Shown one piece after another: positions 4,678 to 6,440 of a stretch of DNA of 11,878 nucleotides (position 1 is its first letter; the number at the start of each line of letters is the position of its first letter). The translations under genes and the position numbers were made by a program. Below the pieces are notes generated by a model, which was not told where the DNA came from, did not search any database, and saw only the letters and a list, made by a program, of their open reading frames with translations. This DNA comes from Candidatus Hadarchaeota archaeon (GTDB taxonomy: Archaea > Hadarchaeota > Hadarchaeia > Hadarchaeales > Hadarchaeaceae), in contig JBFMBF010000030.1 of assembly GCA_040755315.1 (NCBI GenBank), positions 1-11,878 on the forward strand, written 5' to 3'.

Positions 4678-5796
4678 TCAATCCTTGAGCATGAACTTCT
4701 CGACGACATCTTTCGCCTTTTCCCTTTTTTCCTGGTGCTGGATTAGGAATCTTGCGACCTTGTCGGCCAAGATTTTCTTGCACTCTCCACATATCAGTTC
4801 CCCCGCCCTGCAGGCCCGGCCCATTTCTTTGACCTTCTTGTCGTCCTCCTCAAAGATGAAGTCGAAGTACTGGTAGACCGAGCAGACCTCCGGGACCCCG
4901 CCCTTTTCCTTGTGCTCCTTGACGGTTCCGCCGCCGCCCGTGAAGGCGTTCATCACCTTCCTTCTCGCGACCTCCGGCGAGTCTGTGGTGAATATGGCGG
5001 TTTCGGGCTCACTCGCGCTCATCTTGCCGCCCTTGCCCAGCCCGGGGATGAATTTGCAGTGCAGTTGAGCCGGCTTGTAGAAACCAAGCTTTGGCGCGAC
5101 ATCCCTGCTTGGCCTCCAGTAAGGGTCCTGATCAATCGCGGCGGGGATGAGGCAAGGGGTGTTTTTCCCTTTCAGCACAGAAGGGAAGAAGCACGGGGCC
5201 GCCTGGATGGCCGGGAAGAAGATTGTGCCTATGTTGCTATCATTGGTGAACCCGAAGACTGCCTTCGCCGTCGAGAAAGTGATGTGCTTGGCCACTTGGA
5301 CGCCCATCTTGTATAGGGTCTTGCCATAATCGATGTCGGAAAAGATGAAAGTCTTCTTGGGGTCAAAGCCGCAGGCAATCACGTCTAGAGCATTCTCGTA
5401 GGAGAATCCCATTGACTCCTCTAGGCTGAGTTCTCTTTTGAACAGGAACTTCTCGTCGTCGGTCATCTGGAAGTAGAGCTCAGCGTCGAAGGCATCTTGA
5501 AGGTATTTCGTGAATATCCACGGGATCAGGTGGCCGATATGGGTGTTGCCTGAGGGGCCCCTGCCGGTGTAGAGATAAAACTTTTCCCCCTTCTCGTGCA
5601 TGTCCAAAATCCAGTCCATGTCCCTGTGAGAGAAGAAGATCTTCCTCCGGAGATACATGTGGAGCTCGCCAGCGCGCCTTTCCAGCCTCCTCAGTAGCGC
5701 TTGGTCCAACAGCTTTGTCCCGAACTGCTTCACGAGCTTGTCATAGTCCACCTCGCCCTTCACTTCCCAGGGGGTGACGACGAACTTCTTAGGCAT
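4678..5796 (-). CDS. trpS: Tryptophan--tRNA ligase
   Basis: 372 aa. VTPWEV start, YTGRGPSGNTHIGH (HIGH), AIDQDPYWR and KMSAS (KMSKS-like). Archaeal/eukaryote-type TrpRS. Confidence 0.97.
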   Translation of the reverse strand: MPKKFVVTPWEVKGEVDYDKLVKQFGTKLLDQALLRRLERRAGELHMYLRRKIFFSHRDMDWILDMHEKGEKFYLYTGRGPSGNTHIGHLIPWIFTKYLQDAFDAELYFQMTDDEKFLFKRELSLEESMGFSYENALDVIACGFDPKKTFIFSDIDYGKTLYKMGVQVAKHITFSTAKAVFGFTNDSNIGTIFFPAIQAAPCFFPSVLKGKNTPCLIPAAIDQDPYWRPSRDVAPKLGFYKPAQLHCKFIPGLGKGGKMSASEPETAIFTTDSPEVARRKVMNAFTGGGGTVKEHKEKGGVPEVCSVYQYFDFIFEEDDKKVKEMGRACRAGELICGECKKILADKVARFLIQHQEKREKAKDVVEKFMLKD

Positions 5797-5893: not shown

Positions 5894-5954
5894 GTGCGCG
5901 ATGATGAGCTTGGCTTCCCTGATCAATGATGAAGATTTTGAGTTCGGAGCGCGC
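5894..5954 (+). ncRNA. Box C/D 2'-O-methylation guide sRNA
   Basis: Stem GUGCGC (5894-5899), G, C box AUGAUGA (5901-5907), 11-nt guide, D' CUGA (5919-5922), UCA, C' AUGAUGA (5926-5932), 12-nt guide, D variant CGGA (5945-5948), stem GCGCGC (5949-5954). Spacing and K-turn geometry are canonical; upstream TATA and downstream T-run are present. Confidence 0.88.
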
Positions 5955-6000: not shown

Positions 6001-6016
6001 CTGCACGGCCGTGCAC
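6001..6016. repeat. Palindromic repeat copy 1 (CTGCACGGCCGTGCAC, 15/16)
   Basis: Direct reading; consensus GTGCACGGCCGTGCAC. Confidence 0.95.
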
Positions 6017-6092
6017 ATGGAACCTTTTCAATAGATAATTCGATCTGGTACGAGTTGACGGCTGACCGTTGAGTTATGGTGATGAACTTCGA

Positions 6093-6108
6093 GTGCACGG
6101 CCGTGCAC
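6093..6108. repeat. Palindromic repeat copy 2 (16/16; extends to an 18-bp palindrome at 6092-6109)
   Basis: AGTGCACGGCCGTGCACT read directly. Confidence 0.95.
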
Positions 6109-6125
6109 TGCCGCGTTTTTCTCCC

Positions 6126-6132
6126 TTATAAA
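6126..6132 (+). promoter_or_regulatory. Putative TATA box of the Cas2-like ORF
   Basis: TTATAAA between repeat copies 2 and 3; RBS-like GGAGGGT at 6153-6159. Confidence 0.55.
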
Positions 6133-6159
6133 CCACGTTCACCTAAAGGCGCGGAGGGT

Positions 6160-6175
6160 ATTCACGGCCGTGCAC
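6160..6175. repeat. Palindromic repeat copy 3 (ATTCACGGCCGTGCAC, 14/16), contains the GTG start codon
   Basis: Direct reading; GTG 6170-6172 lies in the right arm. Confidence 0.9.
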
Positions 6176-6421
6176 AACAGACTGGTATTGTTTACCTGGG
6201 AGCTTCGCGATAAGGCGAAATGCAAGCGCTGGTTCTACGTTAACCTGAAGCGTGTTTTGGGGGACCTTCCGCAGAAAAGTTGGGAAAAAGTGGGAGGTTC
6301 AGTATATCTCGTCGACGAACGTCACTCGCTTGACATCAGGGAAATTTTAAAACGCTTCGGAGGTCAAGAGCTGAAGTGGCGCGAATTCAAAATAGCATCC
6401 CACGGTTTTTCGCCGTCATGA
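6170..6421 (+). CDS. Small hypothetical protein, Cas2/VapD-like ferredoxin-fold candidate (83 aa)
   Basis: TATA and RBS upstream. The pattern LVLFTWEL...KRWFYVNLKR...WEKVGGSVYLV...IREILKRFG parallels the Cas2 pattern hhhYDI...R..h.K.L...G.RVQ.SVF. The fold call is by eye. Confidence 0.6.
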   Translation: MHNRLVLFTWELRDKAKCKRWFYVNLKRVLGDLPQKSWEKVGGSVYLVDERHSLDIREILKRFGGQELKWREFKIASHGFSPS

Positions 6422-6424
6422 ACA

Positions 6425-6440
6425 GTGCACGGCCGTGCAC
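6425..6440. repeat. Palindromic repeat copy 4 (16/16), 3 nt after the ORF stop codon
   Basis: TGA at 6419-6421, ACA, then GTGCACGGCCGTGCAC. Confidence 0.95.

Follow-up and report, generated by a model that had tools for sequence, protein, structure and literature searches.

The window analysed here is the whole 11,878-nucleotide stretch that forms contig C30 in the assembly of a Candidatus Hadarchaeota archaeon (1,211,039 bases in 50 contigs). Between a C/D box sRNA on the left and the end of atpB on the other side, it carries a compact module consisting of an 83-aa gene and four copies of a 16-bp palindrome. The module is arranged as follows.

6001..6440, + strand: whole cassette, in the order site, spacer, site, promoter, site/gene, site, a layout common to homologues.
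6001..6016, no strand: palindrome copy 1 (15/16), an extra upstream site 92 bp (about nine helical turns) before copy 2.
6017..6092, no strand: unique spacer of 76 bp; the rest of the genome, viral contigs (searched with one 19-mer) and phage records gave no match.
6093..6108, no strand: palindrome copy 2 (16/16), just 5' of the TATA box; putative operator.
6116..6161, + strand: promoter/leader motif of 46 nt, common to the A, E, F and G cassettes, with the TATA box at 6126-6132.
6160..6175, no strand: palindrome copy 3 (14/16, TTCAC variant), overlapping the GTG start; the best-conserved position, without a stable hairpin.
6170..6421, + strand: 83-aa gene, with a predicted Cas2/VapD-type ferredoxin fold and a predicted homodimer.
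6425..6440, no strand: palindrome copy 4 (16/16), 3 nt past the stop codon; right end of the cassette.

A sequence scan recovered the four-copy palindrome of the preliminary description in full: its positions (6001, 6093, 6160 and 6425), its 15, 16, 14 and 16 matches (1, 0, 2 and 0 mismatches to the 16-mer), and its gaps of 92, 67 and 265. Only 0.05 matches are expected by chance, and four or more copies occurred in none of 200 shuffles. The finer details also agree: the GTG of the ORF sits within copy 3, the stop codon lies at 6419-6421 with copy 4 starting 3 nt later at 6425, and the TATA box (TTATAAA, 6126-6132) falls between copies 2 and 3. The earlier remark that the window holds no other full copy extends to the entire assembly, where the 16-mer with up to two mismatches occurs only at these four places and three-mismatch matches number two. 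No cas1 or integrase lies in the window, as also described; cas1 is on C24 and a tyrosine recombinase on C40, and neither is on C30. Neighbouring gene names (trpS, atpB, ilvD, leuC, cdc48, radA, glmU, glmM, rpiA, LacI-type and others) were read by eye from translations throughout.

The C/D box sRNA (5897-5951, + strand), which the preliminary description missed, matches Rfam snoPyro_CD with 38.5 bits (E 2e-6), below the gathering score. It is conserved beside trpS in genomes G001-G005 and has a variant D box; no targets were found in the assembly. The 46-nt promoter/leader belongs to a class with about 20-25 further places in the genome and none in the reversed genome. Its users are cassettes, pilin-like genes, HTH genes and one tRNA, and it has a pyrimidine run before the TATA box, where a purine-rich BRE would be.

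Among 16 intact genes of the GGCC type, the median dN/dS was 0.11 over 72 unsaturated pairs (45 more pairs were saturated), which indicates that the 83-aa ORF is a real gene. All 15 candidates of a homologue search were 62–87% identical, one of them named Hadesarchaea, and a profile search of 1.84 billion representative proteins found 21 proteins. As far as sequence comparison goes, the family belongs to Hadarchaeota. Pfam, NCBIfam, PADLOC and PHROGs gave no match to the protein family, and an ESM Atlas search returned only unnamed clusters under 0.9.

In the AlphaFold model of the protein (pLDDT 85), the structural elements follow one another in ferredoxin order. Cas2 chains make up all of the top Foldseek matches (E 4e-4 to 1e-3), and VapD comes in at rank 15. 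A wide structural search gave generic ferredoxin-like matches with Z up to 7.5, Cas2 chains scoring Z 6.0–6.1, and the Cas2 ranking thus rests on Foldseek. The Cas2/VapD likeness put forward in the preliminary description is borne out by the predicted fold but not by the sequence libraries, which assign the protein to no family. The homodimer prediction scored 0.59 against 0.01 for the best control, and the runs agreed in at least 95% of contacts with pLDDT of at least 88; the score mark used was reached by 20 of 30 solved homodimers and by one of 23 monomers. The protein is accordingly predicted to pair as a homodimer via its β-sheet, a pass that may reflect likeness to solved Cas2 dimers. 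It is a single domain bounded by its own promoter and stop, with no added winged-helix or sensor domain. Residues 19–32 form a basic helix 1. E11 and S44 align with the Cas2 active-site aspartate (after strand 1) and serine (β2-β3 turn); the acidic position is Glu11 in clade A and Asp in the other clades, and its retention in every clade would fit a nuclease as well. Neither an HUH motif nor a conserved histidine pair was found, and the conserved tyrosine of helix 1 is absent from the F and G families. A relation to origin binders of the papillomavirus E2/EBNA1 type was considered but found no support, E2 appearing only at rank 27 (E 0.055) in a viral fold search and not being listed in PDB searches.

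Clade A, to which the gene belongs, gave profile matches in 32 of the 65 genomes of the order and at 15 metagenome loci. Sites were counted with the pattern T[A/G/T]CAC-RSSY-GTG[A/C/T]A at 41 clade-A loci (29 genome, 12 metagenome), a set that omits 20 loci of the distant clades B/D and three near-copies. At least one site was present at 37 loci, a start-codon site at 33, and sites on both sides of the gene at 25. At least two sites were found at 33 of the 41 loci and in none of 76 control windows, the co-occurrence of palindrome and homologue that the preliminary description had proposed to look for. Neither of the two outcomes it had named as refuting was seen: homologues are not devoid of palindromes, and the GGCC form is not scattered over the genome, having no copy elsewhere in it. 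The eight loci with fewer than two sites comprise six with a broken gene, one at the end of a contig and L052, an intact homologue without any site nearby, which counts against the site-gene rule.

A clade-A locus runs from a site through a TATA box and a start-codon site to the gene and a further site; upstream sites number up to five and downstream sites up to two. The copy after the stop codon, which the preliminary description found hard to explain as a simple operator, is a rule of the family (25/41). Most loci have a single form of the central four bases, which differs from locus to locus and is symmetric in three variants (GGCC, ACGT and AGCT). Residue 19 of the protein is Lys where the centre is GGCC and Arg where it is ACGT or AGCT, a correlation that is confounded with descent. 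A paralogue on C8, 57% identical, has four ACGT-centred copies, and the two centre variants of this genome are each confined to their own gene. A single change on the tree suffices for the GGCC centre (support 73/81, not starred). The degenerate A pattern has eight sites in this genome, all at the two cassettes, and none of a clade-A regulon was found with it away from them; the maximum in any of the 65 genomes is 12. Over these genomes the pattern gave 184 matches against 23 in the control.

Across all GTDB genomes, the two-site A pattern occurs at 45 loci, six in Hadarchaeota and 39 in others without a family match. At 10 of these 39 loci, pairs of the 14-mer precede LacI-type regulator genes (named by eye); in the Chloroflexota genomes at L286, L290, L303, L306, L313 and L323, these are TGCACACGTGTGCA pairs. 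The Chloroflexota TGCACACGTGTGCA pairs are probably operators of the LacI type whose resemblance to the A site is convergent.

An unbiased scan of the genome for palindromes repeated within 600 bp gave eight clusters. Five bracket a Cas2-like ORF (C1, C8, C18, C30 and C42); of the other three, one is on C12 and two consist of tandem repeats at the ends of contigs. The five bracketing clusters comprise four unrelated palindrome types plus two centre variants. Besides the gene in the window, the genome has the following Cas2-like genes with their own palindrome sets.

C8:27432-27797: Cas2-like gene with its own palindrome set.
C1:71518-71757: Cas2-like gene with its own palindrome set.
C18:20855-21200: Cas2-like gene with its own palindrome set.
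C42:163-800: Cas2-like gene with its own palindrome set, after a 107-aa partner gene.
C25:14440-14764: Cas2-like gene with its own palindrome set, before a cdc48-like gene.

Since each of the six Cas2-like genes of this genome stands beside its own palindrome, site and protein go together. The type TGCAC-N4-GTGCA belongs to clade A and also to the distant clade C. The E, F and G families have TGCGAACGTTCGCA, TGTCAAACGTTTGACA and TGACAYAGCTATGTCA, respectively, clade B has a fifth type (TTGTTATAWATAACAA-like), and genome G023 has a sixth (TCTAGACACGTGTCTAGA). The clade-C proteins have 17–18% identity to clade A yet the same palindrome type, which loosens the rule of one site for one protein. 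The E palindrome occurs in 27 and the F palindrome in 17 of the 65 genomes, with no control matches. Members of F and G pass the Pfam Cas2 cut-off (24.7 and 24.0 bits vs 23.8), and the G protein also weakly matches ChrB_N (E 0.009) and the central Cas2-like domain of PaaX (E 0.026). No match emerged when clade A was compared by profile with a single G protein; wider profiles of A-D and E-G align weakly (E 0.001, probability 22%), with E11 paired with the aspartate and S44 with the serine. The common descent of A-D with E-G therefore rests on fold and motifs.

Among the matches listed, F relatives (44–56% identity) have inner variants of TGTC-N8-GACA, and the conserved 107-aa partner gene lies upstream in most of them. 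The partner matches no family and no antitoxin, and its fold search gave no match at E <0.001 but only generic ferredoxin-like folds. Of the 19 clade-B loci examined, 18 have the Cas2-like gene in front of a cdc48-like gene, where clade B appears to be fixed and domesticated as a regulator. Lone clade-B palindromes lie at C4:44260, about 100 bp before a dnaG-like gene, and at C23:5291, on the start of a lipoate-ligase-like gene; they are possible distant targets of the cdc48 regulator. Some other relatives and sites were observed. A widespread Hadarchaeota protein of 170–190 aa (L162-L166, L173-L175) has an N-terminal domain of the Cas2-like family and a helical C-terminal part, and has no Pfam family. 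Two clade-D genes (L055:3027-3311 and 5234-5518) each lie behind a small zinc-ribbon ORF, with an imperfect 24-bp dyad about 100 bp downstream of each. On a viral contig (L139:3001-3095), TTCACACGTGTGAA occurs twice in front of a gene for a Zot-like ATPase (by eye), with no Cas2-like gene.

Gaps between sites, gene-spanning ones excepted, are variable and range from about 10 to 108 bp. The gaps of extra sites are periodic near 10.4 bp (R 0.47) in a set of 49 hand-picked gaps, from which promoter-spanning gaps, gaps <20 or >110 bp and homologous repeats had been dropped; none of 20,000 jitters was as strong. Rule-picked clade-A gaps (n = 23) gave R 0.47 at 10.0 bp (p 0.019), and the unfiltered set gave R 0.29. 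As a hairpin, copy 3 folds with −0.2 kcal/mol, copies 1 and 2 fold no better than shuffles, and copy 4 alone beats most shuffles. The would-be hairpin loop is self-complementary in the three centre variants. The whole-turn spacing of extra sites, the hairpin-less copy 3 and the rise of sites by substitution in genes (see below) point to sites that act as double-stranded DNA and not as REP hairpins, CRISPR repeats or excision scars. Nothing foreign was found for 73 spacers, whose matches were confined to the spacers themselves, orthologues, promoter look-alikes and a few of 15-17 nt at chance level, and the one spacer 19-mer tried against viral contigs had none.

The clade-A genes have different neighbours at nearly every locus, mostly housekeeping genes (named by eye). 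Both flanks were matched in this genome for 27 of 44 clade-A loci, and they are adjacent here in 15. Of these 15, three are the genome's own loci or an orthologue, two are unclear and four are gene-less; the other six concern the glmU-glmM gap, which in this genome is occupied by other DNA. The four gene-less gaps are 444–552 bp shorter than their filled counterparts. A fifth empty gap measures 38 bp against 478 bp when filled, and the filled form begins with a site right at the upstream stop codon. None of the five empty gaps of this genome contains an A palindrome; the genomes in these comparisons are about 65–85% alike. In genomes with several copies (G043 and G053), the common DNA reaches roughly from the first to the last site, and 15 of the 29 genome copies of the clade-A gene are broken. 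The differing neighbours, the five empty gaps and the broken copies suggest that gene and sites are likely a mobile mini-cassette of 0.3–0.5 kb that moves between intergenic gaps of Hadarchaeota chromosomes. Gaps are also reused: one that is occupied by an A cassette in G024 has a G cassette in G012 and is empty in this genome. For the gap in the window itself, the suggested search of the trpS-atpB interval for an empty site with a single repeat was unproductive: none of five relatives has a clean one. In four, the neighbours are present with unrelated genes between them, and in the sister genome G002 (86–90% identical) the gap is 179 bp with a lone E palindrome.

The recombinase genes elsewhere in the genome are a Y1 transposase on C15 and the only tyrosine recombinase, on C40, and neither is linked to the cassette. 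As no recombinase travels with it, movement by recombination in trans is most likely. The IS200-type transposase gene at C15:25878-26210 has a broken 5' part, and the surrounding DNA has other hairpins (by eye). Genes for cas1, cas2 and a cas4-like protein lie at a contig end (C24:16665-18219), and a simple scan found no CRISPR array in the assembly. A viral origin was rejected: four candidate stretches in viral contigs include no relative, and the cassette matches no phage record. Two-site patterns in viral contigs occur at three loci, none with a family match.

Sites are also found away from the genes. F sites number nine in this genome, where the gene is present, against two in G002, and six intergenic places have F-site arrays with two or three members. 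At L209:2264-2340 and 5104-5200 (C16 of this genome), three F sites stand about 30 bp apart, interspersed with sites like those of E and G; these gaps exceed their G002 counterparts by about 108 and 130 bp. Of 66 dispersed intergenic sites, 19 fall into convergent gaps, in which no promoters would be expected, compared with 74 of 582 background gaps (p 0.001, with rough gene calls and related genomes). Family palindromes also occur inside conserved coding genes, at the following places.

L204:1502; L225:891 and 1556; L192:1502 and 2545; L201:1502; L107:1514; L124:626.

These E and A sites are in frame, without length change, and differ from the orthologue by four to nine bases, so that some of its residues are replaced; the site in rpiA keeps the same codons in five genomes at 65–89% protein identity. 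Some coding A matches are chance. Comparison with orthologues indicates that sites were gained by substitution and then kept, which points to binding at remote positions being favoured by selection or drive. Lone sites inside genes are not taken as excision scars, since frame and length are kept there; intergenic relic sites may be such scars. Template switching was weighed as the origin of coding sites, but some of these are asymmetric variants of the consensus.

We propose that the 83-aa protein is a self-repressing, sequence-specific DNA-binding dimer carried on a small cassette that is moved in trans, a reading that we consider moderately probable. Because the same layout recurs at many genome positions with one palindrome per protein family, the protein likely binds its palindrome. 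The Cas2-fold homodimer would bind T[G/T]CAC-GGCC-GTGCA as a duplex, each protomer reading one half-site via basic helix 1. Sites flanking the TATA box and covering the start codon would shut off its own promoter, extra sites at whole-turn spacing may allow cooperative binding, and for the site after the stop codon we infer looping or insulation. Host or foreign recombination would move the cassette in trans. In a newly entered cell that lacks the protein, brief expression of the gene would give way to self-silencing. The preliminary description had offered an autoregulated palindrome-binding protein, a site-bounded mobile cassette or a REP-like/mini-array module; the first two hold together in this proposal and the third finds no support. 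A pure self-repressor has no obvious benefit for the host, and it does not explain the movement or the sites of sister families in convergent gaps and coding genes.

An alternative that we consider unlikely but worth weighing makes the protein its own mobiliser: as a site-specific nuclease or minimal recombinase, it would pair two palindromes, free or copy the cassette and seed new sites, in the manner of a RAYT acting on dsDNA. This would account for cassette ends that coincide with the outer sites, with start and stop codons often within sites, for the reuse of the same gaps by different families and for the lack of a travelling recombinase. The alignment of E11/S44 with the Cas2 aspartate/serine is consistent with it, and a stand-alone Cas2/VapD protein cuts dsDNA, according to the accessible part of its report (PMC10491678). 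The F-site arrays dispersed in the gene-bearing genome, with fewer F sites and shorter matching gaps in G002, also fit. The empty gaps, however, offer no palindrome for recombination, and sites within genes come by substitution at constant length, not by insertion. The missing HUH motif and histidine pair and the absence of the helix-1 tyrosine from F and G argue against such an enzyme, as does clade B, which is fixed before cdc48-like genes despite the same acidic residue. We hold it equally doubtful that one 80-residue Cas2-fold protein and its palindrome make up a self-spreading element, in which the dimer would recognise, pair and cut or convert its own site, move its own gene without a transposase and drive sites into gaps and conserved genes.

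Two further readings are improbable. One takes the protein as a VapD-like toxic nuclease held in check by its own DNA sites, through repression and as a sink, in an addiction module. VapD is among the fold matches, the many redundant perfect sites, some far from the gene, would be sinks, and the F family has its conserved partner gene upstream. Clade A, however, has no partner gene, the F partner matches no antitoxin family and only generic ferredoxin-like folds, and half of the copies decay, promoter-side loss included, with no pattern of addiction. The other, just as improbable, takes the palindromes as operators of another host regulator and gives the Cas2-like protein an unrelated role. 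The 14-mer pairs before bacterial LacI-type genes (10/39 non-Hadarchaeota loci, by eye) and the single site type shared by clades A and C at low identity agree with this. Against it stand the ties of single Cas2-like families to palindromes of their own, of which there are at least six unrelated types, and the confinement of two centre variants of one genome to their genes; a separate host regulator for each would need to be gained and lost together with genes that are patchy and mobile. Scarcely credible is a hairpin-based element, with REP/PATE-like ends moved by the host IS200 transposase or an RNA-processed CRISPR-like mini-array: it would draw on cognate flanking palindromes that vary with the protein, as in RAYTs (PMC2817692, available portion), on unique spacers between repeats, and on the Y1 transposase and cas1-cas2-cas4 set elsewhere in the genome, but the best-conserved copy forms no hairpin, copies 1 and 2 fold no better than shuffles, the would-be loop is symmetric, the variable spacers, about 10 to 90 bp long, follow helical phase without foreign match, the DNA around the IS200 gene has other hairpins (by eye), and Cas1 was found in 23 of the 65 genomes but not in eight cassette carriers (75–92% complete).

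Cas2 is known as a sequence-blind scaffold or nuclease. Stand-alone proteins of its fold appear here to have turned into sequence-specific DNA binders, a single order of archaea having at least six cognate palindromes. The six Cas2-like genes in one 1.2-Mb genome would offer a natural protein-site code that is cheap to test with 80-aa proteins and 16-bp duplexes. They may form a new class of archaeal regulators, one clade of which heads a cdc48-like operon in most genomes, and they bear on the open question of the origin of Cas2. The cassette would be a mobile unit for which no mobilising enzyme is known, and perfect sites enter conserved genes by a process that self-repression does not explain. 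Should the self-spreading reading prove correct, such site-specific Cas2 relatives with repeat-spacer arrays would offer a living model for the first union of Cas2 with palindromic CRISPR repeats, and a set of very small DNA-binding proteins whose natural specificities number at least six.

The cassette can be compared with several known systems. It resembles Cas2, VapD and BPSL1038 in its predicted ferredoxin fold, its two-fold dimer through the β-sheet and the positions of the acidic residue and the serine. Unlike Cas2 and VapD, it has no cas1, array or antitoxin beside the 83-aa gene, and Glu replaces Asp in clade A. The accessible portions of the papers on BPSL1038 (PMC10491678) and on Cas2 origins (PMC3150331) describe no cognate palindrome of 14–18 bp. 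Unlike in a CRISPR adaptation module, cas1 does not adjoin the gene at 64 loci (neighbours named by eye), and the cas1 of this genome has its own cas2 on C24. Spacer lengths vary and spacers have no foreign match, in contrast to CRISPR arrays. From VapXD the clade-A loci differ by the lack of a conserved partner ORF, whereas the F family has its 107-aa partner. An integron cassette or integrase-mobilised island differs in that here no integrase is linked and no site is left at empty gaps.

In layout, the cassette can be likened to mobile palindrome systems. In the part of the RAYT study that could be consulted (PMC2817692), RAYT genes lie between palindromes of their own, and these change along with the protein. 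As in REP/RAYT (REPIN) systems, one gene here is flanked by its own palindromes, which co-vary with the protein, and cognate copies are dispersed in carriers. The cassette protein, however, has 80 aa and is no HUH/Y1 transposase. REPs are hairpins, whereas the cassette sites are spacer-less 14-18-bp dyads, helically phased and also found inside genes. They number about a dozen per genome at most, compared with >100 REPs, and the cassette gene relocates and decays. Archaeal PATEs, as far as the available text describes them (PMC3119063), are small mobile elements with near-terminal palindromes, no terminal inverted repeats and core deletions that leave one palindrome. The cassette is likewise a small, probably mobile unit with near-terminal palindromes, a likeness that extends to IS200/IS605 elements. 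PATEs are non-coding, with palindromes related to IS605 ends, whereas the cassette has its own promoter and a conserved gene, and a different dyad in each family.

Among regulators, ChrB and PaaX are dimeric autoregulators on an inverted repeat of their own promoter, and ChrB, which has a related fold, binds this repeat (PMC3817168 and PMC9493321, portions available). The G family has the weak matches to ChrB_N and the central Cas2-like domain of PaaX given above. PaaX binds DNA by a winged helix and ChrB has a sensing domain, whereas here the Cas2-fold domain stands alone, cassette sites lie on both sides of the gene, and clade A has no regulated operon. The full-text literature that we searched, subscription journals lying outside it, has no description of stand-alone Cas2-fold genes with cognate palindromes. 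By the tests that define CRISPR, RAYT, VapXD and integron systems, the cassette belongs to none of them; this Cas2-fold gene and palindrome cassette is real and undescribed in the literature searched.
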